This document shows, in pieces, positions 5,063 to 57,340 of a stretch of 64,000 nucleotides of DNA. Each line of letters opens with the position of its first letter. Positions within the stretch are counted from its first letter, which is position 1. The DNA lies in IMG/VR virus record IMGVR_UViG_3300014656_000015, one strand, 5' to 3'. The position numbers were made by a program, and so were the translations under genes. The notes under the pieces are model-generated. The model was not told the DNA's origin. It did no database searches and was given only the letters and a program-made list of their open reading frames with translations. Source of the DNA: a virus.

Positions 5063-5063
5063 T

Positions 5064-5498: not shown

Positions 5499-5509
5499 AG
5501 TGCTCCTCC

Positions 5510-7049: not shown

Positions 7050-7054
7050 TCGCC

Positions 7055-33987: not shown

Positions 33988-34013
33988 GCCTCACTCCGAG
34001 GCAATTCCCTTAG
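33988..34013 (+). terminator. Putative non-canonical terminator (hairpin + CTTAG)
   Basis: GCCTC-actcc-GAGGC-aattcc-CTTAG at the island end, convergent with terL; no downstream TATAAG. Confidence 0.55.
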
Positions 34014-35845: not shown

Positions 35846-35990
35846 CCCCTGCAGGACTTGAACCATGGTGCTCTCAGGTGAACACATAGCGGCCTGCTTC
35901 CTGTTTCGCAGAGGACAGTTTCACGACGGCCATCAGACCGACGTCAGCGCTCCCCTCTCCACAGGCTGTCACGGCACGGGCTGCCGCGAT
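35842..35990 (-). ncRNA. Predicted TnpB omega/reRNA (scaffold overlapping the tnpB 3' end plus ~16-nt flanking guide)
   Basis: Inferred from established TnpB biology; scaffold would end at TTCAA (35858), giving guide GTCCTGCAGGGGATGG; the 5' boundary is approximate. Confidence 0.5.
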
Positions 35991-37085: not shown

Positions 37086-37219
37086 CGCTTTTTGTCCATC
37101 AGGTCGTGGAGGGCCATGCGGACGACTTCCCCCAGGGAGACGCCCAACCGCTTTGCCTCTAGACGAAGCCAGGCCAGGAGGGGAGGGTCGAGGTGGATTT
37201 CGAGTGGCTGTTTCCTCAT
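37082..37219 (-). CDS. 45-aa ribbon-helix-helix (CopG-like) protein
   Basis: Below the ORF-track cutoff: MRKQPLEIHLDPPLLAWLRLEAKRLGVSLGEVVRMALHDLMDKKR; coupled to tnpB via GTGA. Confidence 0.75.
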   Translation of the reverse strand: MRKQPLEIHLDPPLLAWLRLEAKRLGVSLGEVVRMALHDLMDKKR

Positions 37220-37226
37220 GCTCAAG

Positions 37227-37255
37227 AGCATATATGCCAGTAAGGGCAATGTCAA
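37227..37255 (-). promoter_or_regulatory. Sigma70-type promoter TTGACA-N17-TATGCT for RHH-tnpB (leaderless)
   Basis: -35 at 37250-37255, -10 at 37227-37232, ATG 7 nt downstream. Confidence 0.75.
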
Positions 37256-37348
37256 TAGCAATGTTCAACTTGGCTGTTCTCAGGTGAACAGCCGAGGTCA
37301 GCTTGACATCATTGACGAATACGGAGTTCGTCGATAGGGGATAGAGGC

Positions 37349-37382
37349 ATGGTACCAAAGTCCGGGGTGTCCTGGGTATAAG
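37349..37382. promoter_or_regulatory. Divergent promoters: extended -10 TGGTACCAT (minus, toward terL) and GGTATAAG (plus, small-gene island)
   Basis: Motifs at 37349-37357 (-) and 37377-37382 (+). Confidence 0.55.
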
Positions 37383-43118: not shown

Positions 43119-43396
43119 GCCGCCCCGGCCACCGTATCATTGGCCTGAGCATGGCTGGTGATGTGCTCCACAACGGCCTCGGCGATGGCCTGGGCCATCG
43201 GCCGCATACGCTCCATCTCCTCGTCGGTCAGCGAGCGCGTGCCGCGCCTCTCCAGCACCGTGTAGCTGATGGTACCATCATCCCGTGGCACCTGGGAAAC
43301 GTCGAAGCCGACAACCACGTCGGTCAGCGACTGCTGCAGCAAACGGGAGAGCCTGGCCTGGATCAGGTCGGCCAGGGCCTGTGCATCCATGCTCAA
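43103..43396 (-). CDS. Small baseplate-associated protein (putative)
   Basis: Coupled to the spike gene; AQAIAEAVVEHI helix is common in genes adjacent to spike genes. Confidence 0.55.
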   Translation of the reverse strand: MSMDAQALADLIQARLSRLLQQSLTDVVVGFDVSQVPRDDGTISYTVLERRGTRSLTDEEMERMRPMAQAIAEAVVEHITSHAQANDTVAGAAWRIS

Positions 43397-44559
43397 TCCA
43401 GAAACACCTTTCTGGCCGAGTACTCGTTGGGCATCGGCGCTGTCAGCGGTGCGCCAGTACTGGCCCCCTCCACCGAGTGTCGATGGTTCTGGATATACAG
43501 GATCAGGGAGGGGGTCAGCTTGACCGCGGCCCGACTCGCCCCGTTCCCGCCCAGCTTGATGCTGTTGCAGTCGATCACCTTGGACCCACTGATCGTCTCC
43601 CGGCTGCTGCCCGCTTGCAAACTGTGCGAGCCGGAGACCTCGACGGAGAGGTCGGAGCCGATGCTCACGCTCCGGCTTCCGGTCACCGTGACCGAGTCAT
43701 TGCCCTGTACTTCCAGGGTACGCTCACCCCGGATCGTCTGAGTCCAGTCGCCCCAGGCCTCGAGCTCGACGTCCCCGCTCTCGTTGATAGTGAGATCGAA
43801 GACCCGGGCCTCGCCGTCCACGGTCTCCGCGACGGCGTCGATGCCGTCCGGCGCGACCACGACACGGATCCGCACGTCGTCAGCCATTCCCCCCAGCTGG
43901 AGCATGGCAACGTCGTGCTCATCCTGAGCATTGGTCCTGGCACCGATGCTGAGTATGGCCTTGGCCTCGTTCTCCGGATCCTCGTCGGAGCGGTGGACCC
44001 GCCACGAGATCTCCCCGCCTCCAGCCAGCATCTGGTAGCTCTCACACATGTCCCGGATCACGTTGCCGATGGGAAGGTAGAAACGTTTCGACACTCCACT
44101 GGAACCGATTATCACGGACCCGCCCCGCTGCAACCAGATCTGGTTCCCGTCCCGGCCCCGCATCATGATGTCGCCCTGCTGCAATCGGGGTCGGCCCGCT
44201 CGAAACGTGACCTCGGACCCGGGTCCGGTCTCCACGTTCTCCGCGTCGGCCTGGCTTCCGATACCCTCCGCGCCCTCCCGCTCCATCGTGGTCACGAAGC
44301 AGAGGATGAAGGGAGAACCATCGCTGGGCATGCACAGCTTCACGATGCTGCCAACCTCCGGCATGGCATAGATCCCCTCCCCACTATTGTAGTGGAGATA
44401 GGGTGCGCCAACCTGGAGATCCTGGATGATCCGGTGTGTGTACTTGGTGCGGGCCGTCACGGTCCAATGCAGCATGTCTACGTTGAGGATGCGGGCCTCC
44501 TCGATCAGGACCGCGCTGACGCCGCGTTGCGTCGGACTATTTCGACTCGGCGGCGGCAC
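43393..44559 (-). CDS. Baseplate central spike (gpV/gp5-like)
   Basis: N-terminal OB-like region (MPEVGS), V-x-G beta-helix repeats (TIRG/EVQG/TVTG/SIGS/EVSG), apex HRH metal motif. Confidence 0.75.
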   Translation of the reverse strand: MPPPSRNSPTQRGVSAVLIEEARILNVDMLHWTVTARTKYTHRIIQDLQVGAPYLHYNSGEGIYAMPEVGSIVKLCMPSDGSPFILCFVTTMEREGAEGIGSQADAENVETGPGSEVTFRAGRPRLQQGDIMMRGRDGNQIWLQRGGSVIIGSSGVSKRFYLPIGNVIRDMCESYQMLAGGGEISWRVHRSDEDPENEAKAILSIGARTNAQDEHDVAMLQLGGMADDVRIRVVVAPDGIDAVAETVDGEARVFDLTINESGDVELEAWGDWTQTIRGERTLEVQGNDSVTVTGSRSVSIGSDLSVEVSGSHSLQAGSSRETISGSKVIDCNSIKLGGNGASRAAVKLTPSLILYIQNHRHSVEGASTGAPLTAPMPNEYSARKVFLD

Positions 44560-44563
44560 GATG

Positions 44564-44908
44564 CTACCTCGAACCGCGACCCGCCATGAAGGCGGTGCCC
44601 AGGCCACCAGCGCCGACCGCACCGCCAGCCCCGATCAATGCGGCTCGACCCTCGGGGCGCCCCCAGAGCGATTTTACCCCGGCTCCGATCCGTTGACCCA
44701 GCCCGGCCTCCTGCGGTAACCCGACCATGCCCCGCCGGAAAAGAGCCTGCAGCATGGTACCGGCTTGCACCGGGCTCCGCACCATCTTCCAGCTGGTCCG
44801 TGCCAGATTGGCGACTCCCATCGGATTGAACGCCACCTTGCTCAGCATGCCGTACCGCTCGATCTCGCCGAGCTCCTCGAAGAAGGATTGCATCGTTGCT
44901 GGGTGCAT
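44564..44908 (-). CDS. Small internal virion protein with a glycine-zipper C-terminus
   Basis: MHPATMQSFFEELGEI...LSKVA; GRAALIGAGGAVGAGGLG. Confidence 0.6.
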   Translation of the reverse strand: MHPATMQSFFEELGEIERYGMLSKVAFNPMGVANLARTSWKMVRSPVQAGTMLQALFRRGMVGLPQEAGLGQRIGAGVKSLWGRPEGRAALIGAGGAVGAGGLGTAFMAGRGSR

Positions 44909-44939: not shown

Positions 44940-47900
44940 TCAGTAGCGCCAAGGCTTCTCCGGAGTCCCCTTACCAAAGGAGGCCCCCGAGATCAGGCCG
45001 GGTACCGGATGCGTGCCGTGGAACTCGGTGGTCCAGCCCTGCTGTGCGGCCTCGGTCAACGTGCTCTTGAGCCTGGTGTGGTTGAGCCGCGCCATCCAAT
45101 CCTCCTGGACATCGAGCGGGAGCAGCTTCACACCTCGGAGCACAGGGCTGTACTTGACCCCCTTCTCCTGAGCATGCTCCCGGTTCCACCGAGCCACGGC
45201 AGGCGTGCTGGCCAGATCGCCGCGCAGCAGCGCAGGGTGGTCCCCGGAGTCCTCGATCTCGGCCACGTTGCTCATGGCCCGGACCAGGAGCTCGGAGTTG
45301 CGACGTCGGATACCCTCCTTACCGTAGATGCTGTGGAGCTGCTGTGCCAGGAAACCCTGGGTTCGGTTGACCCCGGCCAGCGGCAGCAGCTGGTGTGGAT
45401 TGATGTACCCGGTCGTGATCGGATCCCCCTTACGGACCGCCTGACCCGCCTTCACGGTCAGCGCCGTGCCGGCCGGAACGTAGTGTCGGGTACCCCGTAT
45501 CATGACGCTGTGCCCACCGGCAGGGTCCTTCTTGATTGCCTCCACCGTCCCCTCCTTCGTGGCCAACGTTGCTGAATCCTTTACCTTCTGCGGAAGGTAG
45601 AGGAGAGAGGTAGCCCGGTCCAGTCCGGCAGCAGCCAGGCTCTGTTCCGCGCTCTCCTTGCCCTCATAAACTCCTCCTGAATGGAAGCTCCGCAGCGCGA
45701 GCTGGGTGCCCCGCTCCCCCAGTGCCTGGGCAGCCAGCACACCCACGTTCGTACCCAGGTCCGGCAGCTTTCCGGATTCGGTGAGCCCCATGCACTTCGC
45801 ACAGACCCCGGTATGGTGGTCGCAACGTATCGGGGAGCGCACCACGACCCGCGCCCGAGGATTGTTGTTGCGGATCTTGGTCACCAGATCATCGGTCAGT
45901 AGAGTATTTGCCGGAATCTCCTTGCCCCGGCCCAGCTTGACCGGAGCAACGGTGAAGCGTCCGAGCACGTCGGGGTCCTCCACACGCAACCCGATACCCC
46001 TCGCGGTCTCACAGTCCTCGGTATCCACCATCTGATCCATGGTGGAGTTCATCATCATCTTGGTCAGGTAGCCCGGTTCCCGGACGCTCTGCACCTTCTG
46101 CACGATGCCCTTGCGCCCGCCGCTGGTGGCCGACCAGTAGTCCATGGTCCGCAAGCCCTCCGCATAGGAACGGCGGACCGCGTTGGGGACGACTTCGCCC
46201 TTCCCGTCCACGAAGAGCACGGGTGCCGCCACCAGCTGCTTGTACCCGTTGCCCTTGATCCCCGCCGCCACCTCGAGCCGCGCCAACTGGGACTGGTTCC
46301 TGGGGTCCCGGGCTGCCTGCTTGAGGGCGGAGTCCAGCTTCCCCGACACCTCGGCGAAGGCATCGACGTACTGCTGCACGTCTCCGGGCTTGCTCAAATC
46401 GAGCCTGGATGTCTTCGTGGCAGCCGCACGGAGCAGGGGGTCCCGGATCTCACGGTGCGGCCTCATGTCCTCCAATCCCAGGGTAAAGCCCTCGGACGTG
46501 CTGACCTCGTTGCCCAGATCCTTGAGTCGGTTCGTCCGCTCCGGGTAGCCCTCACCGTCGAGCTGGGCCATTCGCTGGAACAGCTTGCCCTGCTCCCCCT
46601 TGGTAAGCCGGTACTGGAGGTCGGACAGCACGGGCTTCCTGAGCTCCTCCGGGAGCTCCTTGCTCACCCGGAGCCGACCCAGCGTGGTCCGGGTCGGCTT
46701 CCCGTCCGCCCCGGTCACCTTGACCACATCGGTCAACCCCACCTTCCCCTGTGCGTGGGCCCGTTCCAGCTCGGACTCCGTCTTGAAACTCTGGTTCGTC
46801 TTCTTGCCGACCTCGGTGGCCATGTAAAGGCCGACCTGCATCTCCTTGTCCGGGGTGTACATGACCCGGTGCGTGGCCGCGCTGAACAGGTTGCGGCTCG
46901 GGAACATGGCCTCGGCTTCGTGTACCGCTTCGTTGGAGATCGGGACGTAGGCAGACATCTGGTCCCCATCGAAATCGGCATTAAATCCGGAACACACCAA
47001 CGGATGTATCCCGATCGTCTTGGTATCGGTGAGGCGCGGCTTGAAGCTCTGCACGCTGTACCGGTGCAGCGCTGGATCCCGTTTGAGCATGACGGGCCGC
47101 TCCTGGACCACGCGGTCCAGTGTTCGAACAGCCAGTGGGTCATTCTCGTCCACCATCTTCTTGGCCTCGAGCGGACCGACACCGGCGGTACGACGGAGCT
47201 CGCGGACCACGAAGGGCTTGTACATCTCCTTGGCTGCCTTCCGCGGCAGCTCCACCTCGTCCAGCCCCAGCTTGGGGTTGGGCACGATGGTGCTGCGCAT
47301 CGTCAGATCCTGCTTCCGTTTGAGCAAGACGTTCTGGACGTAGCCCTCCTTGGGAGAGCCCTTGCCGGCGATGGTCTGGAGGATGCCGGAGAACTTGTTG
47401 TTGAGATGCCCGCCGACACCGGTCAACGAGCGCAGGTGGTCATAGATGTCGGCCTCGACCGGCGTGATCAAGGACTGCGGGGTGCCTGGCGGGAACTGGC
47501 CCGCCTTCATGTTCACCAGGGCCAGCCCCTTGTAAAGCTCGTTCAGATCGTCGGTCTGCAGCCGACCATCCTCCGTGATCGCGATGGGGCGCATCGCGGG
47601 GGGCAGGACCGGGACGTGCCGCATCATGTAGGCGTCGGTCGGCTTCATCTGGAGCCGGTCCAGCGCCTGCAGATACTTCACCTTGCGCCGGGTCTCGTTG
47701 AGGAGCTGGCCATTCAGCTTGGGCAGCCGAGCCTTCTCCCGTTCCAGGTCCGACTTCACGTCGATCCGGTCCAGTATCTTGCCGACCGCGGCGGGACCAT
47801 AGGTCACCCCGGCCTTGCCGGACTCGGTCACCACGTTGCCGTCGTCGGATACCCCGGCCTGGCCAGCGATGATGCTCTGGTACACTGGGGCCCGGATCCC

Positions 47901-50900
47901 GGCCAGGCTCATGATGGCCCGTTCGAAGACCGGGTTGGGCATCGGCTTGGCCAGGGTCAGGTGACTCCACCTTTTTCCATCCATTCCTCCCGTGATCTTC
48001 TCATCGAAGAGCCCGCCCCGCTCCGGCTTCTGATCCTTCATCCGGATCATCCTGCCGGCATCACGCAGTTCCCCACTGCTCATCTCGAGCGTGTCCTTGT
48101 CGGTCAACGGAACCAGATTGAGACTATTGCCGTCCCCCTCCATGTTCACGCCGAGACCCCTGAGGTAGCCGAGGAACTTGTTGTAGGCAAAGGTGGGACG
48201 AGGCGGTGGCAGCATTTCACCGGCTTGCAGCGCCCCCCAGAGCTCATCCCGGACACCACCCTGACTCTTGTCGCTCTTCCAGGTATTGGCCTCGCGAAGA
48301 TTGGCCCGCGCCCCGTGACTTAACATGGCGTAGGTACCCAGAGCACCGAATGCTTGCGCCCCGTGCTTCCCACCACCCCTGGGAACCAGGTTGTGGTCGT
48401 AGGCGCCACGGTCCCGGGACGCCATCTTCTTGTCCACCTGGTGCTCGAGCTTGAACACGTACTGATTCCCGGTGAACACCTTCGGAATGGTCCGGCCCGT
48501 GGCCGGATCGATCAGATCCTCCTTCTCCTTCAACCCCTCTTCCTTGAGCAGCTTCGAGACATGCTCCAGGTTGTCCTGGACCGTGAAGTTCTCTACCTGA
48601 ACCGGCCTCCCCCGCTTCTCCGCGACCTTCCCCGCCGCGGTCTCCAGGAGCTGACCCACATTCATGCGCCCCGCCACACCGAGCGGGTTCATGATGATGT
48701 CGATGGGCTTCCCATCCTTGGTCTGCGGCATCTCGGGGTCGGCAAGGATAGCGGTAACGATTCCCTTGTTTCCGTGCGCCGCGGCCAGCTTATCGCCGAC
48801 CTGCATCGGCTCTCGGGTCTTGACGTGAACCTCGACCCGATCCCGTCGCCGCATGACCCCGACCACTTCCCCCTCATGGTCCTCATCCCAGGTCACCGCC
48901 ATGTCCTTCTTCGGGCTGACGATGCTTTTATGCAGCAGCTGCAGCTTCTGCTCCTCCGTGGTCAGCTTGCGCTCCGCCATCGCCGCGACCAAGGTGTCCC
49001 CCGGCTTCACGCGCTGCCCCACCTGGACCACACCGGTATCGTCGAGCTTGGCCGCCTGATCCTTGCTCATCCGGTTGCGGAAATATGCCTGATACTTCTG
49101 CTTCCCGTCCAGCGATGCGTTCCGCAACGAGACCCCGGGCCGGTGCATATGCACCGAGGTCATCTTCTGCGCCGCGCTGTCGCTCAGCACGACCCCATCT
49201 TCGAAGGTGAGACCCTTCCATGGTAGATATGCCGTGGACAGATTTCTTCCGGGTGCGTACTGACCCCCCTTGGTGAAGTTGGTGTCCCCGATCAGTTGAC
49301 CCTCGGTCACCCTTTCCCCCACCTTCACCGTGGGTGTGCTATGCATGAACCCCGTCTTGTCGTTCAGTGGGTAGTGATTATAAATCGGGACATCGACCTT
49401 CTTCCCATCCCCGGTCCGAAGCGTAATCGCATCCTCGGTGACTCCTACCACCTCACCGGCCTGTGGTGCATGATGCGAGGCAAAGCTCCCGACCAGATCC
49501 ACCAGCGGCTTCTTGCCGATGACGGCCTGCACCAGTGGCACCTCGCCGTGCTCCACGGGCACGGCCTGGGACATGTGGCGACCCGCCATGGTAGCCCGGT
49601 TCGGGCTGTCGCTGTTGATGAAGGGGACCATGTTGGTGGCCAGTCCGAACATCTGCGCCGACTTCGGGACGATGTACTGCACGTCCCGCATCCGTACCGG
49701 CCTCACATCGTTCCCGGGTATGCTGGCCAGCACCATTCCGCCCTCGGCAGGGACGAAGCCACGTTTGGTGCGCCGCACCGCGTCGGGCAGAGCCACGGTG
49801 CTGTCATGGGCTCGCTCCACCGAGACCAACTCCGTCTTCCCACTCTTCGCGTTGATCAGCGGAATCTGAAGGGCGTTACCCACCTTCCGCGCACCGAGAC
49901 TGAGCTGGAGCGCGACCCCGGTGTTGATACCCTCCGGTGTGTCCAACGGGTCCAGGACACCGAAGTGGGACGGGTCCACCAGCTTTGCGTCCTCGGTGAT
50001 CCGGTTGGCATCGGCCACGCCGCCTTCCCCGGCGATGGTGGTACGCATATGGTTCCCGATCATGCGTAGCGGATTGGTCTGCTGTGCCGTGTTGGCCAGG
50101 GAGACCTGACTGAAGAAGTCATTGACGGGGCGGCCAAAGGTGTCGGGCCCCACGATGTCACGGACCCGCGCCTTCCGATCCAGATTGTTACGAACCCTCC
50201 GCTCGATGACCGGCCGTGTCCCCTCGATCCGTTCCTTCATGTAGTCTTCTACGGCATAGAAGTCTTTGAAGATCTGGTTATCTCGAACATCGGGTCGCTC
50301 CTGTCCCCGGGAGATCCCGAGCAGCCGACCCGTGGAGCGGAGCAACGCATCTTGATTGATCCTATCGATCGGAGCCCCAAGGGTACGCCGGGTCACCTCC
50401 GGATGCAGGTAGGAGCTCTCCAGCTTGTCCCGGATCACGCCAGCCGCCTCCTGCTCATCGCGAAAGGTGGCCTTCGGATCGACCCGTGCCGCGAAGTCCT
50501 TGATGACCTTCCCCGTCGGGATGGGCCGGCCCCTGGTATCCAGCTTGTTGGCGTTCAGGATCTCCTTGCCCCACGCCTGCTGCAACGTGTCGTCACTCAC
50601 CCCCATCGCCTTGAGGATGGGGTAGAGCGGAGGCTTGGCACCACCCAGCTGGACATGGAACTTCCGCGCTTCCGGGTTGAAGCCGACGTGGAGCGGCCTA
50701 CCCTTGATGTTGAAGAAGCTCTCCAGCTCCCCGTTCTGCTTGACCTTGGTGTAGACCCCGGGTCGGAGCCGGAACTGATTCTCCACCTGAAACTCGGAAC
50801 CGTTGACGATGAAGCTGTACCGGTTCGTGATCTTGGGCAAGTTAGCGATACGCTGGGTGGACCTGTCGATCACCTCCCCCGTCGCCTTGTCCCGAAGCAC

Positions 50901-51113
50901 CATGGTCGCCTTGACCGGGATGCCGAAGGTACGCTGGCTCAGCTTGGCCGCCTTCTGAGCCGTGAAGTCCGCGCTGGAGACATTGTCGTCGATCTGGACA
51001 TCTTCCAGCTCGAGGACGTGCTTGCCGCCCTCGATAGGGAAGGTGCCACGGACCGCCTCGGTAACCCCCTCCTTGAGTGCGTCAAAGCTCTCTCGGGGAT
51101 CGAGCCTGGCCAT
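44940..51113 (-). CDS. rpoBC: Single-chain DNA-directed RNA polymerase, fused beta and beta' homolog (2057 aa)
   Basis: Beta motifs SFIVNG, HFGVLDPLDTPEG, NRATMAGRHMSQAVP, GDKLAAAHGNKG, NPLGVAGRMNVGQ, KLEHQVDKK. Beta' motifs KPERGGLFD, PVLPPAMRP, RDPALHR, FNADFDGDQM, bridge helix GRKG..PGYLTK, trigger loop GERGTQLALRSFH. Confidence 0.96.
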   Translation of the reverse strand: MARLDPRESFDALKEGVTEAVRGTFPIEGGKHVLELEDVQIDDNVSSADFTAQKAAKLSQRTFGIPVKATMVLRDKATGEVIDRSTQRIANLPKITNRYSFIVNGSEFQVENQFRLRPGVYTKVKQNGELESFFNIKGRPLHVGFNPEARKFHVQLGGAKPPLYPILKAMGVSDDTLQQAWGKEILNANKLDTRGRPIPTGKVIKDFAARVDPKATFRDEQEAAGVIRDKLESSYLHPEVTRRTLGAPIDRINQDALLRSTGRLLGISRGQERPDVRDNQIFKDFYAVEDYMKERIEGTRPVIERRVRNNLDRKARVRDIVGPDTFGRPVNDFFSQVSLANTAQQTNPLRMIGNHMRTTIAGEGGVADANRITEDAKLVDPSHFGVLDPLDTPEGINTGVALQLSLGARKVGNALQIPLINAKSGKTELVSVERAHDSTVALPDAVRRTKRGFVPAEGGMVLASIPGNDVRPVRMRDVQYIVPKSAQMFGLATNMVPFINSDSPNRATMAGRHMSQAVPVEHGEVPLVQAVIGKKPLVDLVGSFASHHAPQAGEVVGVTEDAITLRTGDGKKVDVPIYNHYPLNDKTGFMHSTPTVKVGERVTEGQLIGDTNFTKGGQYAPGRNLSTAYLPWKGLTFEDGVVLSDSAAQKMTSVHMHRPGVSLRNASLDGKQKYQAYFRNRMSKDQAAKLDDTGVVQVGQRVKPGDTLVAAMAERKLTTEEQKLQLLHKSIVSPKKDMAVTWDEDHEGEVVGVMRRRDRVEVHVKTREPMQVGDKLAAAHGNKGIVTAILADPEMPQTKDGKPIDIIMNPLGVAGRMNVGQLLETAAGKVAEKRGRPVQVENFTVQDNLEHVSKLLKEEGLKEKEDLIDPATGRTIPKVFTGNQYVFKLEHQVDKKMASRDRGAYDHNLVPRGGGKHGAQAFGALGTYAMLSHGARANLREANTWKSDKSQGGVRDELWGALQAGEMLPPPRPTFAYNKFLGYLRGLGVNMEGDGNSLNLVPLTDKDTLEMSSGELRDAGRMIRMKDQKPERGGLFDEKITGGMDGKRWSHLTLAKPMPNPVFERAIMSLAGIRAPVYQSIIAGQAGVSDDGNVVTESGKAGVTYGPAAVGKILDRIDVKSDLEREKARLPKLNGQLLNETRRKVKYLQALDRLQMKPTDAYMMRHVPVLPPAMRPIAITEDGRLQTDDLNELYKGLALVNMKAGQFPPGTPQSLITPVEADIYDHLRSLTGVGGHLNNKFSGILQTIAGKGSPKEGYVQNVLLKRKQDLTMRSTIVPNPKLGLDEVELPRKAAKEMYKPFVVRELRRTAGVGPLEAKKMVDENDPLAVRTLDRVVQERPVMLKRDPALHRYSVQSFKPRLTDTKTIGIHPLVCSGFNADFDGDQMSAYVPISNEAVHEAEAMFPSRNLFSAATHRVMYTPDKEMQVGLYMATEVGKKTNQSFKTESELERAHAQGKVGLTDVVKVTGADGKPTRTTLGRLRVSKELPEELRKPVLSDLQYRLTKGEQGKLFQRMAQLDGEGYPERTNRLKDLGNEVSTSEGFTLGLEDMRPHREIRDPLLRAAATKTSRLDLSKPGDVQQYVDAFAEVSGKLDSALKQAARDPRNQSQLARLEVAAGIKGNGYKQLVAAPVLFVDGKGEVVPNAVRRSYAEGLRTMDYWSATSGGRKGIVQKVQSVREPGYLTKMMMNSTMDQMVDTEDCETARGIGLRVEDPDVLGRFTVAPVKLGRGKEIPANTLLTDDLVTKIRNNNPRARVVVRSPIRCDHHTGVCAKCMGLTESGKLPDLGTNVGVLAAQALGERGTQLALRSFHSGGVYEGKESAEQSLAAAGLDRATSLLYLPQKVKDSATLATKEGTVEAIKKDPAGGHSVMIRGTRHYVPAGTALTVKAGQAVRKGDPITTGYINPHQLLPLAGVNRTQGFLAQQLHSIYGKEGIRRRNSELLVRAMSNVAEIEDSGDHPALLRGDLASTPAVARWNREHAQEKGVKYSPVLRGVKLLPLDVQEDWMARLNHTRLKSTLTEAAQQGWTTEFHGTHPVPGLISGASFGKGTPEKPWRY

Positions 51114-51138
51114 CCAGGACCTCCTATGTGCTGCGTGC

Positions 51139-51185
51139 AGTGTATCAGGTATCGAGGGGAGGCGGGTAGCCCGTAACGTTATAAG
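51139..51185. promoter_or_regulatory. Divergent promoters: extended -10 TGATACACT (minus, RNAP gene) and GTTATAAG (plus, small-gene/ncRNA island)
   Basis: 51139-51147 (-) upstream of the RNAP AGGAGG RBS; TATAAG at 51180-51185 (+). Confidence 0.6.
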
Positions 51186-51241
51186 AAAGATGAGGACGGG
51201 TCCCTTGACATCCCCAAGGGGGCCCGACGAAAGGAGGCGAT

Positions 51242-51355
51242 ATGAAGGGGACGAGCATCTGTATCATCCGGGCCGACGGTGGCCCGGGTGATGAGGACGA
51301 CGCCCCGGGCTCTCTCGAGTCCGGGGTGGACGAGGCGCTCGGGCTAGGCGGCTAG
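51242..51355 (+). CDS. 37-aa acidic peptide
   Basis: AAAGGAGG RBS; MKGTSICIIRADGGPGDEDDAPGSLESGVDEALGLGG. Confidence 0.55.
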   Translation: MKGTSICIIRADGGPGDEDDAPGSLESGVDEALGLGG

Positions 51356-51366
51356 CCCGAGCACTG

Positions 51367-51468
51367 ATGCTGAGACTCTTCCTCCTGGCCTTTGCCCTCG
51401 CCTTCGTGGCGGGGATGACGACCAGGCCCGAAGAGTGGATCTTCCGTCCCGAGGAGGATGAGAAGTAG
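51367..51468 (+). CDS. 33-aa putative membrane peptide
   Basis: MLRLFLLAFALAFVAGMTTRPEEWIFRPEEDEK; followed by hairpin-CTTAG (51482-51510). Confidence 0.45.
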   Translation: MLRLFLLAFALAFVAGMTTRPEEWIFRPEEDEK

Positions 51469-51481
51469 GAGCGGAAGATCT

Positions 51482-51549
51482 GGGTACCGGGTACGGTACC
51501 CCTTTCTTAGCGCAAAACGCCTCGTTTGCCATGGTATAAGAATATTGAG
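51482..51549 (+). promoter_or_regulatory. Hairpin-CTTAG followed by a GGTATAAGAATATTGAG promoter-like motif (no RBS follows)
   Basis: 17-bp identity to 33626-33642; no start codon/RBS pair downstream. Confidence 0.65.
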
Positions 51550-52715
51550 CAGAGAGAGTTTACTCTCTTCTGCTTGGGTCTCCGTGCAGCGCGGCACGGG
51601 GCTGAGTCGGGGCTCTCTCCCACCCGACGCGCGACCGTACCGGAAGACCTCGGTACGGGTAAAGAGGCGGGTCCGTGGGGCGCCACCGATAGTCTCGAGG
51701 AGGGACGATGCGGGGCGCCTAGGGAGCAAATACCACGGATAGGACGGTGGGGTGCCGTCCAGAGGCCGGAAACTGGTGGGCTCGAAGTAGGGTCTCCTTT
51801 GGGAAATGGTCGAAAGACCCCCCATCCGCGGGATGGGTGCCCAGCTCCTGAAAAGGGTACCACCAAATGCCGCTCCCCGGGGTAACCATCCGGGCTAAAC
51901 AAAGTGGTTCGCCATCCGAGGCAAGGCGGGAATCCTCGGCGATCGCCATTCGAGGTAAGGCGGAACCCTCGACGACCTGGGCATGTCGCTAAACTGCCCT
52001 CTGACTGCGTTACCGCTGTCGCAGTCAGCAGACTCTCCAGCAGCGGCGACCGTCGAAATCAGCCCCCCTAGCTGGGGTTCCCACGTCGCAACGGCGTTGG
52101 GACTAAATGGAAGCGTTGACGGTGTCCCCCCTCGGATCCACGACGAGGGCACAAGGGAGTTCGTGGACCACCCACCAAAAGCCTCCGGTGGGTGAAACGG
52201 AGCGGGCCTGCGGCCGCCGATGTACCATGAGAATGGGATCATCGGCGCGAAGGGTAGTCCGCAGGAGCCGGGAATGGGGAGCCCGGCATGTTCCTGTCCC
52301 CGGAAGGGGGCGCCACGAAAGTGGTAGGGTGTGGGGTTCAACTCCCCACGATCTAGGTGACTAGGTCGCCCGTTGGGGGCATACCCGCTGCTGGGAGGCG
52401 GCTTGGCGCGTTGGTCACGTGGCAAGTCGTCCACCTCAAGTCTGAAGGAGGGGAATGACCCCCTCTCCGGATGACTCCAGTCGTGGCGCCCCCTTCCGAG
52501 AGCAGGAACGGGTTCTGCCCTCTGAGGAGGGAAGCGGTGTGGAGGTCCTACCTGAACGGGTTCGATTCCCTTGGGTAGGGTAGGATCTCGGACTCCTGTG
52601 GTGACTGGCCAGTCACCAGGTCTGCAGGAGCGCCACAGGTTCGGAACGGGGATGACTACCTCGTGAAGGACTGCGCATCGCTTCTTTCCTCAGGGGGCGG
52701 AACCCGCCCTGGCAG
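51545..52715 (+). ncRNA. Putative ~1.15-kb highly structured non-coding RNA (tandem pseudoknots, T-loops)
   Basis: No credible ORF; nearly continuous helices; at least 7 H-type pseudoknots in 51876-52202; T-loop hairpins at 52331-52349 and ~52548-52580; long-range pairing 52302-52313/52486-52496. Confidence 0.7.
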
Positions 52716-52914
52716 TAGCAAAAATCAATCCTATTAGATAGTTATAAGAACTATGAAGAGTTGGTGAGTTCGATCCACGACTCCTTGGACCATCCCCTCG
52801 GCGAAGACCCGAGGCACAGAGTCCAAGGAGCCCTTTCGTGGGTAGTCGAACCCGACCCGCCATCCGAGGTAAGGCGGGAATCCTCGGTGACCCGGGCATG
52901 TCGGAAAACTACCC
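51910..52914 (+). repeat. Pseudoknot-forming repeat CGCCAT(C/T)CGAGG(C/T)AAGGCGG..CCTCG(G/A), 3 copies
   Basis: Copies at 51910-51939, 51944-51972 and 52858-52887; the last two are each followed by a GAC..GGGCATGTCG..AAACT.CCC unit. Confidence 0.85.
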
Positions 52915-52990
52915 AATCTAACGGAGCGTCGTATCGTCTCCGAGCCCATTGCTGCGCTGGTGCGGCGATGTGCCCCGATGCGACGTTCCC
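52750..52990 (+). ncRNA. Second structured RNA / 5' leader of the MYG1 gene
   Basis: Starts after TATAAG at 52743; long hairpin (GTTCGA-TCCACGA-CTCCTTGGAC/GTCCAAGGAG-TCGTGGG-TCGAAC), then a copy of the pseudoknot pair. Confidence 0.6.
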
Positions 52991-53014
52991 ATGCTTCTCG
53001 TTTGGAGGGCTGAG

Positions 53015-53992
53015 ATGGCAAAGAAGGTCGTCACCCACCCGGGTGACGCCCATCTCGACGACCTGCTCTCGGTGGCGGTGGCCTTGGCCATCGACCCCGG
53101 GATCAGGGTCGTCGAACGCCGGGAGCCCACCGAGGAGGAGCTGGCGGACCCCGAGGTCATCGTTCTGGACGTCGGGGGGGAGCTCTCCCCCCTGTGCCAG
53201 AGCTACGACCACCACCAGTTCCAGCGCGATGCAGCGGCGGAGTGCACTCTGTCCCTGTTCGTGCGGGAGCTCGAGTGGGAGGGGGAGTCCGTGTTCGAGG
53301 CGTTCAGAATCACGAAGTGGTTCCAAACGCTCCGGGTCGCGGACTCAAAGGGTCCCTTCCAGCTGGCGAAGAGTTTGGGCACGACCCCCGAGGTCGTGTT
53401 CCGGCTCCACTCGCCGCTGGAGGGAGCTCTCCTCCAGCTCTTCCAGGCGGAGACGGTTTGGGAGGTCGCTACGTACCACCCCGAACTGCCTGCGGGCTGG
53501 CTGTTGCCGAACAGCCTGCCCGAGGTACTCCACCTGGTGGGCAAAGGCCTCCTCGACGGAGCGGTGGAGAATCTGAAGAGGGTGAAAGCCCTCGACAGCC
53601 TCTGCCGCATTGTCGAAGTTGACGGTGTCCAGGGCTACGTCCTGGAATCCGAGGACACCGTCGGCACCGAGACGTGGCGGGAGCGTTCGGCTCCCGGGAC
53701 CGCATTCAGCGTTGTCTACGACAACCGCGGTCCCGGCTGGACGCTCTACCGCTACGACGATGACTCCCGGATCGACTTCTCCCGGCTCGAGGGCCGGGAA
53801 GAGGCGACCTTCGCCCACAAGGGCGGCTTCATTGCGAAGACCGCCTCGAGGGAGAGGGTCGGGCTCGAGCAGGCGCTCGAGCTGGTCCGGGCCGCCATCG
53901 TCGTACAACCACGTGAGTGCGCCTGTGGTTCGGGAGAACCGAGCCCGGGTGTCTCCGGTGGTTGCTCGTCCGGGTCCCCGTACTGCGGGTGA
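53015..53992 (+). CDS. MYG1-family (DHH-like) exonuclease
   Basis: VTHPGDAHLDDLL, VLDVGG, YDHHQ, FAHKGGFIA motifs; Cys-rich C-terminal tail. Confidence 0.85.
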   Translation: MAKKVVTHPGDAHLDDLLSVAVALAIDPGIRVVERREPTEEELADPEVIVLDVGGELSPLCQSYDHHQFQRDAAAECTLSLFVRELEWEGESVFEAFRITKWFQTLRVADSKGPFQLAKSLGTTPEVVFRLHSPLEGALLQLFQAETVWEVATYHPELPAGWLLPNSLPEVLHLVGKGLLDGAVENLKRVKALDSLCRIVEVDGVQGYVLESEDTVGTETWRERSAPGTAFSVVYDNRGPGWTLYRYDDDSRIDFSRLEGREEATFAHKGGFIAKTASRERVGLEQALELVRAAIVVQPRECACGSGEPSPGVSGGCSSGSPYCG

Positions 53993-53994
53993 TC

Positions 53995-54263
53995 CGGCTC
54001 GGTAGGGGCCTCGGGGCACAATCGGGGGGTCTGTGCAGGAGATCCTGCCCCCCGAAGCGCAAGTCCTGATTCGATACGGTGCAACACGAGCACCGTCCCG
54101 GCGTGCAGATAAGCCGGGGTCAGGCAAACCCTCCAGTGGCGGAGGGGTGGAGGAAGCTGCGTGGAGAGCAGCGGAATCGACCCCAACGCAGAACCGGGGG
54201 TTACTGTGACGAAGGGACGATGTTGAAGATCCCGGGAGAGAGCTGCGTGAGCTCTCTTCTTAG
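53995..54263 (+). ncRNA. Structured non-coding element downstream of MYG1, ending in hairpin-CTTAG
   Basis: Consecutive hairpins: TCGGGGG/CCCCCGA, ACGGTGC/GCACCGT, CCCGGC/GCCGGG, CCCTCC/GGAGGG, GCTGC/GCAGC; terminal AGAGAGCT/AGCTCTCT-t-CTTAG. Confidence 0.5.
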
Positions 54264-54397
54264 CCCATAATCGGCATTGCAATTCCCCGATACTTCTTGG
54301 GATAAGGAGGGTGGACCCCATATTTGCCGACAACGGAGTCGGCCTATCGGAGGTTCGGGATGGCCTGCACCGGAGTCGGTCATCGAAAGGAGACGAG

Positions 54398-55480
54398 ATG
54401 CATGTTGTTTTAGAGGTGAGCTGGACAGATGCCGTCGCGCATCGCAGCGATCCGGGGACGCGGCTAATCCAGATCGATCTGGCGGCCCCGGAGTGGACCG
54501 AGGAGCGGCGCAACGCACTGCTCCAGCTTGGAGAGGAGATGGAGGCGGGGCGTATCCTGGTCAGCGGGCTCACCGCGATGACCCTGGAGGCCTTGCTGGC
54601 GAGGCTCGATGCGTTCCACGAGGAGCAGCAGAGGAAGACGAAGGAACGGGAGGAAGCACGGCAGCAGAAGGAGGAGGAGCGGCTGAAGCGGGAGGAGAAG
54701 GAGTGGGAGCGCATCCGCACCAGGCTCGAGGAGGGAGAGCTGCCCCCGGCACTGTACAGGATGTCACGGCCCACCCTGACCCAGGATGGGGTCACGCAAT
54801 CCTACGAACGGTACGAGGCGGATCGAAACCACTGGACATGGTCCAGGCTCGAACAGGAGCCTAAAATGATGCACAGCTTCGAGGAGCTCGTTGCACGGCT
54901 CAACGCGAATCGGCTCGCGGAGGCCCACGACAAGCTCCAGGCTCTCCTCAAGGAGCGGCAGGACGCGGAGCTGAAGAGGCTGGCCCGGACCCGACTCACC
55001 ACCGACATCCTGGATGTGTGCCTCACCGAGGAACAGCGCGAGCGCTGGAAGGCCGACATGCTGCCGGCAAAGGAGCGGGATCAAGCCATCGAGGACTACG
55101 TCTTCGAGCGGCTCTTTCCATCCTCGTCCGAGCCCGCGCCCGCGCCCTATAGGAAGCTGACCCCCCAGGACATCGGTACCCATCACGAGGACTGCGAAGG
55201 GTACCCAGGGGCTGTCTTCAACAGCACCGATGCGAACGAGGTCGACGCCATGACCTGGGCTGCATCGAAGGCATTGGAAGCGCGGATTGATCAACGGCAA
55301 CGTGGTACGCTTCAGTCCGACGACTGGGAGGTGAGCCTCACCATCAGGGATCATACGGTCCACTGTGGGGGGTGCCCGAGCAATCACTACGAGGACCTTC
55401 GGCATCGCTACGGCGCCCGGATCGGCGTCAAGCACACCCCGACCAACCTGAGCTGGTCCAGGGAGTACGCCCTGGACTAG
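54398..55480 (+). CDS. Hypothetical (putative early) protein with a coiled coil
   Basis: GAAAGGAG RBS; GATAAG promoter variant at 54301; E/R-rich coiled coil; His/Cys cluster at the C-terminus. Confidence 0.7.
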   Translation: MHVVLEVSWTDAVAHRSDPGTRLIQIDLAAPEWTEERRNALLQLGEEMEAGRILVSGLTAMTLEALLARLDAFHEEQQRKTKEREEARQQKEEERLKREEKEWERIRTRLEEGELPPALYRMSRPTLTQDGVTQSYERYEADRNHWTWSRLEQEPKMMHSFEELVARLNANRLAEAHDKLQALLKERQDAELKRLARTRLTTDILDVCLTEEQRERWKADMLPAKERDQAIEDYVFERLFPSSSEPAPAPYRKLTPQDIGTHHEDCEGYPGAVFNSTDANEVDAMTWAASKALEARIDQRQRGTLQSDDWEVSLTIRDHTVHCGGCPSNHYEDLRHRYGARIGVKHTPTNLSWSREYALD

Positions 55481-55489
55481 ACCTGCCAC

Positions 55490-55514
55490 GGGCCGTTCCG
55501 GCCCATTTCCTTAG
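55490..55514 (+). terminator. Putative non-canonical terminator (hairpin + CTTAG)
   Basis: GGGCC-gttcc-GGCCC-atttc-CTTAG, convergent with the portal gene; no TATAAG follows. Confidence 0.55.
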
Positions 55515-55537
55515 CTATCTACGGTATCCCGCAGGGC

Positions 55538-57340
55538 TCAGACGGAGGGAGCCTCTCTACGAGGTGGTAGCTGCTCGGGCAGTGCGGAGAGCGCGCTGTT
55601 GCCAGCCAGGGACTGCTGCAGCCGCTGCGCCGCATCCGGGTTCTGCTGACTGATCCGTTGCAGCACACGCATCTGCTGCTCCGGGTCCAGCTTACGGAGC
55701 CGGCTCAGCCCGTCCTGCGGATTGACCGCGACCCCGCCGGCCTCGCCGGGCTCCCCCGGTGCCGTGCCGTAGGTGCCAGCCTGCATCTGCTGGGACTCGA
55801 GCGCGGCTGCGTTCTGAGCCCGGGCCTGCCATCGAGCCTGGATCACGCCGACCTCACCCATGATCTCGGCCTCCGCCGTCTGCTGCTCCTTGACCGCGTC
55901 GTAACGCTGCTTCGTCTCGTCCCGGATCAGCTTGTCCTCTTCCTTCGGATCGTAGTCACAGCCCTGCCGGAAGCTGGCGTCGCTGACCAGCTTGGCCTGG
56001 TTCAGTTGGAACCGGAACGCTTGCTGCTGGAGATCGTCAGCCATCTTGAACGGCTTGAAGCGCACCCCGGGCTCGGGCCAGTCCAACCGGGTTGCCGTTC
56101 GCTTGATGATGAAGAGGCGGATCATACGGAGCAGACCCGAGACGTAGCGCAGGAAGCTGTTCTCCATCATGCGGAGCGAGACGTTGCTACCGGACCACGA
56201 CAATCCACCCCAGATGAGCTCTGGTACACAGCCCATTCCAAGTATGATCGTATCCGCAATCTGCCGCATCTCCTGGGTTAGCAGGAGCGCCCGACCATCC
56301 CCCCCGATGACCTGGGCATTGAGCGGGATCGGCATCACGCTGACGTAGTTCGGGTCCTTGCGCCAGCGCTGGAACTCCTCAACCACCATGTCCTTCCAGT
56401 TCCCCAGGTTCATGTGCTCGTATGGAGACATCCCGGGCACCGTGCTGGTCGGGCTCACGATGTTGAACGGGAGCATGCGTTCGAGCAAAACGCTCTCTTG
56501 GGTCTTCAGCATCAGCTGGTAGTAGAAGGTGTGCCGAAGCACGGGCAGCAGCAGCGGGATGCCGAGGCCACGGTTGGACTGGCCGGTCAGGATGCTGGGC
56601 CGGCGCATGTGGTAGACGTTGGCCGGATCCAGGACCACGCTCTTCTTCAGCCGGACCGCGTCGATGAACTCCTGCGGGGTACGCTCCACGAGCTCTCTCC
56701 GCCCGATCCGGATAGCGTTGCTCAAGTACCCCGGTATCCTGTAGTAGTAGCTGGTCTCCCCGGTCAGGTCGTTGTGCAGCGTGGTGATGTCCTCCGGGTT
56801 CCAGATGAGGATGCGGGAGCCTCTCGTCGTCTTCGTGTACTGGTCCCGAACCTCGGCGGGCCCCTCGTGCCCACACTCACACTTGAGCTGGAACTTCAGG
56901 TTGCGCCAGCGATACTTGGCCTTCTCCGCACGGACCTCACGAAGGCAGCTCTCGCACTTCAACATCTTGATGAAGGGATCGACCATGGAGATGATGGCGT
57001 TCCCGTAGTTGTGGTAGAACAACCCGATGTCCAGCATGGTCTCGCGCAGCGCGAGGTCGTCCTCGAAGAAGGTCTCCCAGCGGTCCCGGACCCCACTTTC
57101 CCCATCGATGATCAGATCCGTGATCGGGTACTCCGCCAGCTTGTTGACGACGGATGCGATCAACGGATTGGTCAGATAGTAGAAGCGGCACCACTGGAAC
57201 AGGTCGCGGACCGTGGCCGGCATATAGGTGTTGGCCACGTCGAAGTAGGGTGCTGGATACCGGATGGGTCCCGTGGCTGTTGGCGACCCCAGGAGCCGAG
57301 CCGAGGAAGGCGTCGTACCCTGAACCGGGGTAATCTTCAT
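55538..57340 (-). CDS. Portal protein with a Zn-ribbon insertion
   Basis: 600 aa; CRFYYLTNPLIASVVNKLAEYP, YHNYGNAII, GLGIPLL, MGCVPELIWGG; insertion CESC...CECGH. Confidence 0.75.
   Translation of the reverse strand: MKITPVQGTTPSSARLLGSPTATGPIRYPAPYFDVANTYMPATVRDLFQWCRFYYLTNPLIASVVNKLAEYPITDLIIDGESGVRDRWETFFEDDLALRETMLDIGLFYHNYGNAIISMVDPFIKMLKCESCLREVRAEKAKYRWRNLKFQLKCECGHEGPAEVRDQYTKTTRGSRILIWNPEDITTLHNDLTGETSYYYRIPGYLSNAIRIGRRELVERTPQEFIDAVRLKKSVVLDPANVYHMRRPSILTGQSNRGLGIPLLLPVLRHTFYYQLMLKTQESVLLERMLPFNIVSPTSTVPGMSPYEHMNLGNWKDMVVEEFQRWRKDPNYVSVMPIPLNAQVIGGDGRALLLTQEMRQIADTIILGMGCVPELIWGGLSWSGSNVSLRMMENSFLRYVSGLLRMIRLFIIKRTATRLDWPEPGVRFKPFKMADDLQQQAFRFQLNQAKLVSDASFRQGCDYDPKEEDKLIRDETKQRYDAVKEQQTAEAEIMGEVGVIQARWQARAQNAAALESQQMQAGTYGTAPGEPGEAGGVAVNPQDGLSRLRKLDPEQQMRVLQRISQQNPDAAQRLQQSLAGNSALSALPEQLPPRREAPSV

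Follow-up and report, generated by a model that had tools for sequence, protein, structure and literature searches.

Large non-coding RNAs with intricate folds are, to our knowledge, rare among bacteria and phages, and no more than a handful of classes have been described. Each known large class has opened new biology, the latest being RNA-only cages. Type III antitoxins are built from repeats of ~34-45 nt, and phage mimics of ToxI are known. GOLLD and ROOL are large ornate RNAs of phages and prophages that constitute Rfam families and have been studied by cryo-EM (bioRxiv 10.1101/2024.12.08.627333). Here we analyze a 1.2-kb stretch within 64 kb of DNA from a large groundwater phage (the whole of which is referred to as the window) that is probably a new large non-coding RNA. 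An undescribed large structured RNA had been proposed at this position in an earlier note; the intrinsic tests (promoter, non-coding character, fold, pseudoknots and lack of an Rfam family) uphold that part of the proposal, and the specific functions suggested for it, as a cofactor of the phage RNA polymerase (RNAP) or a mimic of ToxI, are not supported.

Proposed transcription unit and neighboring genes

The proposed unit, its boundaries and the start of the following unit are composed of these features:

51533-51542, + strand: promoter motif GGTATAAGAA of the RNA unit, one of six + strand copies of TATAAGAA
51547-52728, + strand: proposed non-coding RNA transcription unit of ~1.18 kb, with no codon-phase GC signal, no conserved ORF and a fold z of -8.9
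51547-51575, + strand: 5'-terminal hairpin (GAGCAGAGAGAG UUUA CUCUCUUCUGCUU), located where other units have an RBS
52692-52728, + strand: 3' end region, a GGGCGG-AAC-CCGCCC hairpin followed by AAUCCUAUUAG, a variant form of the signal that ends units here (hairpin + YTTAG)
52741-52750, + strand: promoter of the next unit (MYG1 exonuclease), a copy of the recurring promoter motif
52856-52914, + strand: copy of the two-pseudoknot module (PK-A + PK-B) in the MYG1 mRNA leader, with 84-94% identity to 51910-51999

The TATAAG motif without an RBS at 51535, from which the earlier note began the unit, is real and forms part of a 10-nt motif, G[GT]TATAAGAA, that is present six times on the + strand of the window against 0.05 copies expected, and the same promoter motif precedes homologous units in related phages. 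The copies at 32872, 33298 and 33628 are followed by GGAAAGGAGG and an ATG within ~20 nt, while at 51535 the 5' hairpin lies downstream in place of an RBS. The 3' end of the RNA unit is atypical in its hairpin-to-tail spacing of 16 nt; canonical hairpin + YTTAG unit ends are found at 51482-51510 and 55490-55514. Since no canonical terminator is present at this 3' end, transcription may read through into the MYG1 unit.

The RNA sits in a + strand island with the gene of a MYG1-family (DHH-fold) exonuclease at 53015-53992 and a 360-aa gene, and this island is inserted between a portal-like gene and the polymerase gene. Placement of the RNA directly back-to-back with the RNAP gene, as first described, proved inaccurate, as a separate and conserved unit comprising a promoter, two peptides and a terminator (51180-51510) intervenes. 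In phages with an orthologous fused RNAP (55-63% identity), only this small two-peptide unit is found here, with no trace of the RNA. The RNA is therefore a lineage-specific accessory; the distribution weakens the idea of an RNAP cofactor, a role that we reject on synteny. The 3' end of the MYG1 gene bears a separately conserved structured element, and a profile of this element run against the window detected no copy within the large RNA.

Coding potential, predicted fold and pseudoknot chain

The stretch is non-coding. Its codon-phase GC range is flat (0.04-0.15 across 51480-52920, as opposed to 0.4-0.5 in the flanking genes) and its candidate ORFs have a GC3 of 0.44-0.68, compared with 0.82-0.85 in real genes, which bears out the original description of the region as ORF-poor. 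A conserved ORF, which the earlier note had said would speak against an RNA, was not found among 5.8 billion proteins or in Pfam: the longest ORF (179 aa) matched only itself in the former, and none of the ten ORFs of the stretch had a match in the latter.

The predicted structure is exceptional. The whole unit folds at -613 kcal/mol against -526 +/- 9.7 kcal/mol in shuffled sequences (z -8.9), with coding controls at a z of ~-2. The - strand also has a strongly negative fold z (-7.6 overall), and the energy gap in favor of the + strand is largely compositional. The structural features of the unit and its vicinity, including the products of a strict scan for pseudoknots (Watson-Crick pairs only, S1 of at least 4 and S2 of at least 5), are as follows:

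51576-51875, + strand: 5' domain made up of stacked hairpins, one of them with a GAAA tetraloop (51808-51819); fold z -2.7, sliding-window z -2.6 to -4.7
51876-52046, + strand: five H-type pseudoknots from the strict scan, arranged head to tail as a chain (51876-909, 51910-939, 51944-972, 51973-999 and 52001-046), with linkers of 0-4 nt
52049-52123, + strand: hairpin subdomain closed by ACCGUCGA/UUGACGGU
52129-52167, + strand: sixth pseudoknot, with stems of 6 and 7 bp, from the strict scan
52169-52202, + strand: candidate seventh pseudoknot, with a solid 8-bp hairpin and a sterically doubtful 4-bp second stem; fails the strict scan
52267-52301, 52686-52711 and 52856-52887, + strand: further pseudoknots from the strict scan
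52290-52509, + strand: domain D3, a ~26-bp closing helix around a multi-way junction, z -6.8; 18 bp of the closing helix are perfect (52301-318 with 52481-498, no G.U pairs), and three hairpins stand on the junction: one with the T-loop consensus (52331-52349), one with a GUGA tetraloop (52350-52367) and one that is hypervariable (52397-52431)
52510-52705, + strand: domain D4, closed by a 32-bp helix that includes 6 G.U pairs and stacks on a 12-bp helix, z -8.6; the 12-bp helix is capped by a T-loop-consensus hairpin (GGG UUCGAUU CCC), and there are two more hairpins besides

Nine strict H-type pseudoknots were identified in 1416 nt, compared with 1.34 +/- 1.2 (maximum 5) in 100 shuffles and with four hits on the - strand. 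The five knots within 171 nt form the only such cluster in the 64 kb on either strand, the maximum elsewhere per 200-nt span being two on the + strand and three on the - strand; this cluster statistic is weaker if the duplicated PK-A pair is counted as one event. Of the seven H-type pseudoknots originally listed, six were recovered at exact coordinates by the strict scan, with a predicted geometry that fits the H type in its interleaved stems, a loop 1 that is short enough and a loop 3 that is long enough to cross the grooves. The remaining one (52169-52202) is present as complementary sequence and is doubtful: it fails on the length of its 4-bp second stem and of loop 3, and a 4-nt loop would need to cross the 8-bp stem. 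On the + strand, the knots have a short loop 1 and a long, A-rich loop 3.

Comparison of paralogous knots within the locus adds a second type of evidence. The tandem PK-A copies at 51910 and 51944 are spaced 34 nt apart with 18 of 20 core bases in common, and a third copy is located 914 nt away in another transcript. Across the three copies, both stems are kept through one exchange of C-G to U-A and others of C-G to U.G. The compensatory change of C-G to T-A by which the 51910 and 51944 copies differ had been pointed out before and is correct. PK1 and PK4 have the same loop 2 (U) and loop 3 (CUAAAC), and their stems differ in sequence while still being complementary. Nested folding of the pseudoknot stretch does not exceed the random expectation (z -0.1 to -1.4), so the only support for the knots comes from pattern statistics and this paralogue comparison.

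The two 3' domains are closed by long helices; uninterrupted helices of 18-32 bp are unusual among the functional bacterial RNAs known so far. Each domain contains an arm matching the T-loop consensus, with a U54-U55-C56-R57-A58 loop closed by G-C as in the T arm of a tRNA: GUGGGG-UUCAACU-CCCCAC at 52331-49 and GGG-UUCGAUU-CCC at 52557-71, and the T-loop core GTTCRAYYC occurs three times on the + strand within 440 nt, as compared with eight times in 128 kb (both strands). The fold z of D4 is -8.6 on the + strand and -5.6 on the - strand, and its closing helix and the 3' hairpin compete mutually. The direction of the promoter, the loop geometry of the knots, the G.U pairs of D4 and the asymmetry of its z-score all support the + strand as the RNA strand.

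Occurrence, proposed function and competing explanations

Two independent assemblies contain an identical sequence, evidence that the DNA is real, and near-identical copies occur in other samples. In a strain variant from a biofilm sample, 52128-52356 is unchanged, and the differences listed (13 of the 16 substitutions and both indels) all lie in one tetraloop and one hairpin. Its changes include a single G-C to A-U exchange, two that are compatible with wobble pairing and, in the variable hairpin, two that break pairs; the pieces of the variant over neighboring coding genes are 5-16% different. Positions 51552-51817 are also found, with 3 differences, in a 267-nt contig from a wastewater library labeled RNA-Seq cDNA, where the RNA label is a guess, contigs carry no start, end, strand or level, and uncovered parts are uninformative.

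No homologue of the RNA was detected in any collection searched, and as the RNA is an orphan, the case for it is built on intrinsic statistics. A distant-mode blastn search of 51500-52750 against 50,697 phage records was blank, a search of IMG/VR with exact 20-21-mers taken from four regions of the RNA retrieved no homologue, and RNAP-guided loci from IMG/VR and JGI metagenomes, of which the best relatives are 55-63% identical, do not have the island. Against five whole related virus records, blastn of the stretch yielded chance matches of 14-22 nt only, and a covariance model of D3 matched only itself in the same five records, 18 loci and the window. The loci around eight MYG1 homologues contain no such RNA. 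A 770-nt gap upstream of MYG1 in one of the loci (L031) was considered as a counterpart and holds a pentapeptide-repeat gene. A related complete phage (G005) was scanned for an analogous long non-coding stretch and had none that was convincing, at a GC content (57%) that makes GC3 periodicity a poor guide.

Rfam, which the earlier note had proposed as a check, returned no matches at gathering score in the whole window and only chance microRNA and viral-element matches at E<=5 over 51000-56000. The models without a match include GOLLD, ROOL, OLE, HEARO and raiA (at gathering score in the whole window and at E<=5 over 51000-56000), group I and group II introns, RNase P, 6S and Y RNA, and, at E<=5, the preQ1-I/II/III, SAM-II/V, SAM-SAH, guanidine-III and fluoride riboswitches. 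ARAGORN identified 0 tRNA genes and 0 tmRNAs in the 64-kb window. A tRNA-like cloverleaf, or an acceptor-T minihelix whose 3' end could be aminoacylated, is not present: the Rfam tRNA model had no match and the arm order of D3 differs from that of a tRNA; a decayed tRNA array is ruled out by ARAGORN and Rfam.

With moderate confidence, we regard the stretch as a functional, stand-alone structured RNA gene of ~1.18 kb with its own promoter. The RNA would begin with a protective 5' hairpin and a hairpin domain, continue into the chain of five to seven knots and end in the two 3' domains, and it would probably be a stable, nuclease-resistant, protein-binding RNA that serves as a scaffold or decoy. 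Given that the two-pseudoknot module is common to the RNA and the MYG1 leader, one factor would read both RNAs. The shared module could then be a recognition or roadblock element, and the RNA could titrate the shared factor, or the knots could shield the RNA against exonucleolytic decay. The long perfect helices may be RNase III processing sites that release the domains. The exonuclease, or else a host factor of RNA decay or defense, might be docked or titrated by the RNA; alternatively, the RNA might persist as a scaffold proof against degradation as the exonuclease removes other RNA. We put forward a MYG1-linked scaffold or decoy mechanism only tentatively and with low confidence. The same caution applies to the suggestion, speculative at present, that this is the first member to be seen of a new class of large ornate phage RNA in which a rigid knot chain and two T-loop domains work with a MYG1-family exonuclease.

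A different and unlikely reading takes the stretch as part of the MYG1 operon, as its long structured leader or as a processing region, read through from 51535, with structures that may act in cis, e.g. in attenuation, antitermination, stabilization or RNase III processing. It would fit the lack of a canonical hairpin + U-rich/YTTAG terminator, given the 16 nt between hairpin and tail, the recurrence of the PK-A/PK-B module in the MYG1 leader, the long hairpins that also make up the MYG1 leaders of related phages, and the switch-like competition between the 3' hairpin and the closing helix of D4. However, a full promoter motif lies right after the stretch (52743), and MYG1 can therefore do without an upstream promoter; in addition, at five other phage loci the MYG1 homologues are preceded by leaders of only ~100 nt and by no such RNA, and a 1.2-kb leader would be extreme. 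Non-functional filler, in which leader modules were locally duplicated and palindromic (MITE-like) insertions accumulated such that structure is a by-product of DNA inverted repeats, is quite improbable. The RNA being an orphan, its lineage-specific absence from RNAP relatives, the visible internal duplication, the 18-bp perfect inverted repeat without G.U pairs that bounds D3 and the strongly negative z-scores of the - strand are all compatible with such an origin. Yet the 32-bp helix of D4 needs 6 G.U pairs, which are mismatches in DNA or on the other strand, and the D3 model, unlike a MITE, has no second copy in the window or the related records searched. A dedicated promoter is present, it is only on the + strand that loop 1 (short) and loop 3 (long and A-rich) suit RNA knot geometry, and the strain variant differs less here than in neighboring genes.

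Three further explanations have still lower probability. The long inverted repeats and the intergenic position beside the portal-like gene and virion-module genes could suit a DNA-level element rather than an RNA (a replication origin, packaging or recombination site), but this is very unlikely in a region that has no iterons and no AT-rich unwinding region (GC 0.62-0.64) and that related phages lack at the same position; the promoter motif, G.U-dependent helices and strand-specific knot geometry point to RNA instead. A type III antitoxin mimic (pseudo-ToxI), whose tandem PK-A repeats would neutralize a ToxN-type abortive-infection toxin, had been among the functions suggested for this RNA and now appears highly improbable. 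The 34-nt spacing of the two PK-A copies is inside the type III repeat range, and each copy is a pseudoknot candidate, but there are only two tandem copies (~87% identity) in an otherwise unique 1.2-kb RNA and not a near-identical multi-copy array, and no Rfam family is matched even at E<=5. There is no ToxN/AbiQ-family gene beside the RNA, its neighbors (a MYG1-family protein and unassigned proteins) having no match to PADLOC, NCBIfam or Pfam toxin models. The PK-A core has 10 exact matches in 185,579 prokaryote genomes, all of them single, without a tandem copy nearby and with the second stem absent, and no matching array was found there. A protein-coding stretch, with one or several small or unusual products, is barely credible. 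The gene calls of the public assembly are a 176-aa ORF (- strand) and a 42-aa ORF (+ strand), the latter with an AGGAGG ahead of its ATG, but both have a GC3 of 0.60-0.68, below the 0.82-0.85 of real genes, and no homologues or families, and the AGGAGG, at a distance of only 3 nt from the ATG, is predicted to be sequestered in a 7-bp hairpin.

Comparison with known RNA systems

The candidate RNA has partial counterparts in three kinds of known system. With ToxI-type antitoxins and pseudo-ToxI, it shares ~34-nt tandem repeats that are each able to form a pseudoknot, but here only two copies are tandem and they are diverged, and the searches revealed neither a toxin gene nor an Rfam match nor a host array. 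Small H-type knots that abut head to tail are also found in tmRNA (PK2-PK4) and in the upstream pseudoknot domain of the tobacco mosaic virus 3' end, and T-loop-type hairpins likewise follow further 3'. In contrast to tmRNA, the RNA here has no ARAGORN or Rfam tmRNA match, acceptor stem, tag reading frame or CCA end, is ~3x longer, and has its T-loop hairpins inside larger closed domains.

The resemblance to GOLLD and ROOL is that of phage-borne, multi-domain, highly structured RNAs of 0.6-1.2 kb with pseudoknots and tertiary-motif hairpins, for which neither a function nor an obligatory protein partner gene is known. The differences are that the RNA here has no covariance-model match, even at E<=5; that GOLLD and ROOL are usually beside tRNAs, whereas the 64-kb window has no tRNA genes by ARAGORN; and that those families are defined by covariation over many genomes, whereas this RNA is an orphan. 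We know of no head-to-tail pseudoknot chain and no 26-32-bp closing helices in GOLLD or ROOL. If real, the candidate would offer a compact, testable system for a phage structured RNA and an RNA-degrading enzyme, with the MYG1 exonuclease encoded next door. It is longer than GOLLD or ROOL, and its architecture pairs domains that long helices close with a knot chain such as those of tmRNA and the 3' ends of plant viruses.

Transcription units between the polymerase and portal-like genes

The sequence belongs to a groundwater-metagenome phage (197,587-bp contig, GC ~62%), and the - strand of the window carries most of its genes. A + strand island of four units (51180-55514) separates the polymerase gene from the portal-like gene, the second unit being the proposed large RNA.

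Features of the window, with promoter motifs in related loci
32872, 33298, 33628, 51180, 51535, 52743 (+): promoter motif G[GT]TATAAGA(A); also at L031 5175 and 5897, and L034 about 175
43393-44622 (-): gp5-type spike or baseplate protein
44940-51113 (-): fused beta-beta' RNA polymerase, 2057-aa ORF
51180-51510 (+): unit 1, two tiny ORFs
51535-52728 (+): unit 2, the proposed large RNA
52743-54264 (+): unit 3, MYG1-family (DHH-fold) exonuclease gene with long structured leader and trailer
about 54301-55514 (+): unit 4, 360-aa protein of no known family
55538-57340 (-): portal-like gene

G[GT]TATAAGAA stands at the start of units 1-3 and a GATAAG variant at that of unit 4; the + strand holds six promoter motifs against 0.05 expected. 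At the end of units 1, 3 and 4, YTTAG comes immediately after a GC hairpin. As an earlier note had read it, the motif at 51535 lacks a following ribosome-binding site. A perfect 5' hairpin stands in its place. The sister promoter at 33628 shares TATAAGAATATTGAG with 51535 and continues into GGAAAGGAGG and an ATG. The promoter motif and unit-end signal (GC hairpin plus (A)ATTCCTTAG) are common to several only distantly related groundwater phages, a pattern suggestive of a single transcription machinery whose promoter and terminator grammar is conserved. Elsewhere in the window, a TnpB gene (OrfB_IS605 plus Cas12f-like TNB; 35874-37358, -) adjoins the large terminase gene (34010-35887).

In relatives sharing 55-63% identity in the fused polymerase, about 0.5-0.6 kb separates this gene from the portal-like one. 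Apart from a GTTATAAGA-type promoter and a terminator, this space encodes just two peptides, one acidic and ~40 aa long, the other short and hydrophobic. The same content makes up unit 1, so units 2-4 are a lineage-specific insertion. Unit 1 also intervenes between the RNA and the polymerase gene, which are thus not back-to-back as had been described, and the proposed role as polymerase cofactor fails with the relatives: because units 2-4 are absent from them, a general cofactor of this polymerase family is ruled out. The unit 1 type (51180-51510, +; L002, L003, L006) is kept immediately upstream of and divergent from the fused polymerase gene in all relatives examined; its promoter and terminator accompany a 37-aa acidic peptide and a 33-aa hydrophobic one that ends in an acidic tail.

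Predicted fold and pseudoknot chain of the proposed RNA

Folding of the whole unit yields -613 kcal/mol, where dinucleotide shuffles give -526 +/- 9.7 (z -8.9); for three length-matched coding controls, z is about -2. Two 3' domains stand out. D3 (52262-52530; z -6.8) is closed by a helix of 18 perfect base pairs plus 8 more pairs around a multi-way junction containing a T-loop-consensus hairpin (GUGGGG-UUCAACU-CCCCAC), a GUGA-tetraloop hairpin and further hairpins. D4 (52500-52735; z -8.6) is closed by 32 uninterrupted base pairs, 6 of them G.U; this helix stacks on another of 12 bp, which a second T-loop-consensus hairpin (GGG-UUCGAUU-CCC) caps. Within 440 nt of the RNA the T-loop core GTTCRAYYC appears 3 times, versus 8 times in 128 kb (both strands). 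The - strand is also strongly negative (+ versus -: overall -8.9/-7.6, D3 -6.8/-6.0, D4 -8.6/-5.6), and base composition accounts for most of the 63 kcal/mol by which the + strand folds better; the grounds for choosing the + strand are therefore the promoter, the knot loop geometry and the G.U-dependent D4 helix.

Pseudoknots were sought with a strict scan (Watson-Crick pairs only; S1 at least 4, S2 at least 5; loop 1 of 1-4, loop 2 of 0-4 and loop 3 of 2-12 nt). The + strand of 51535-52950 contains nine (shuffles 1.34 +/- 1.2, maximum 5) and the - strand four, over a whole-window background of 90 per strand. Five abut, with linkers of 0-4 nt, in the 200-nt span from 51876, and every other such span has at most two (+ strand) or three (- strand). 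Six of the seven tandem pseudoknots claimed in the earlier note were recovered position for position; the seventh (52169-52202) was not. Its second stem has only 4 bp and its 8-bp stem would have to be crossed by a loop of 4 nt, so it is regarded as a simple hairpin. When only nested pairs are allowed, the chain region folds no better than random sequence (z -0.1 to -1.4), as would be expected of a true pseudoknot chain, but the knots consequently rest on pattern statistics. The three copies of the PK-A pseudoknot (51910, 51944, 52858) keep both stems despite C-G to U-A and C-G to U.G exchanges, the former being the compensatory change already noticed between repeat copies. PK1 and PK4, two members of the chain, have the same loop 2 (U) and loop 3 (CUAAAC...); their stems differ at most positions and are still complementary. 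These paralogue comparisons add support for the pseudoknots. With the duplicated PK-A pair counted once, the cluster is significant in the non-coding stretch and only marginally so window-wide.

Population variants and a possible MYG1 link

The RNA region is identical in two independent assemblies. A biofilm-metagenome contig over 52128-52460 (depth about 3) carries 16 substitutions and 2 indels; among the differences listed (13 substitutions, both indels), all fall in the GUGA loop or the hairpin 52395-52430, and 52128-52356 is unchanged. Within that hairpin, a G-C pair is replaced by A-U, two further changes still permit wobble pairing, and two others disrupt pairs. In pieces of neighbouring coding genes from the same run, differences amount to 5-16%. 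The pattern is weakly suggestive of constraint on the RNA, mosaic recombination being the alternative. Between strains, substitutions concentrate in the D3 hairpin 52395-52430 (+), which has 10 of them within 36 nt; the surrounding 230 nt are identical. A 267-nt contig from a wastewater library labelled RNA-Seq cDNA corresponds to 51552-51817 with 3 differences; as a sequence match it shows the 5' domain to be present nearly unchanged elsewhere, an occurrence and not proof of transcription.

A two-pseudoknot module, PK-A/PK-B, is common to the RNA and the MYG1 mRNA leader (52856-52914), and is the only visible functional link of the RNA. MYG1 homologues at five other phage loci share the promoter motif of the window, and their hairpin leaders are about 100 nt long; the large RNA and the pseudoknot module are absent from all five. 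Within the MYG1 coding sequence, 53200-53950 (+) has very negative fold z-scores, -4 to -10 in 150-nt windows versus about 0 to -2.5 for other coding controls, and contains palindromes such as GGGGGGAGCTCTCCCCC. After the MYG1 stop codon follows a conserved structured element of ~220 nt, found at 70-80% nucleotide identity behind MYG1 homologues in at least five phage loci.

Element 3' of MYG1
Window 54046-54262 (+)
L034 about 1250-1460
L028 about 4950-5112
L038 about 2650-2866
L031 about 6930-7160

RNAalifold predicts 41 pairs in this element, 12 with compensatory changes; a hairpin and YTTAG signal terminates it, and it has no Rfam match. Having relatives, which the large RNA lacks, it offers the better prospect of proving a new MYG1-linked RNA family. 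L031/L032 also carry a pentapeptide-repeat protein gene with 15-nt periodicity (5175-5560, +) behind a GGTATAAGT promoter; this gene is absent from the public gene calls, which have an ORF on the opposite strand there.

Favoured and rival readings, and known RNA families

In the most likely reading, unit 2 is probably a real large structured RNA under its own promoter, and an orphan among such RNAs. One rival takes the stretch to encode small proteins. Real genes of this genome have GC3 of 0.82-0.85 and GC2 of 0.38-0.53, giving a codon-phase GC range of 0.4-0.5, which falls to 0.04-0.15 over 51480-52920; with GC3 of only 0.44-0.68 in its nine ORFs (42-179 aa), the stretch is ORF-poor, as had been proposed. 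Its longest ORF, annotated by a public gene caller, matches only itself among 5.8 billion proteins, and the ORFs have no Pfam or PADLOC match, so no conserved ORF was found that would speak against a non-coding RNA. The stretch might instead be a read-through leader of the MYG1 unit, a reading favoured by the atypical 3' end of unit 2, which lacks a canonical terminator. Further rivals are filler whose structure derives from duplications and palindromic insertions, a DNA-level element, and a ToxI mimic. Rfam 15 returned no match in the whole window at gathering score and only chance matches at E<=5 over 51000-56000, leaving the RNA outside any known family as the earlier note had supposed; ARAGORN detected no tRNA or tmRNA in the window, and no collection searched held a homologue of the RNA.

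For the function of a large structured RNA, we weakly favour, as a tentative and on balance doubtful proposal, a stable RNA that binds protein as a scaffold or decoy in connection with RNA decay, because the PK-A/PK-B module is shared with the MYG1 leader. In such a role, the knots would be roadblocks or recognition elements, and RNase III would process the RNA at the long helices. The architecture of the present RNA matches no family; its kind is already known from GOLLD and ROOL, likewise large ornate phage RNAs of unknown function.
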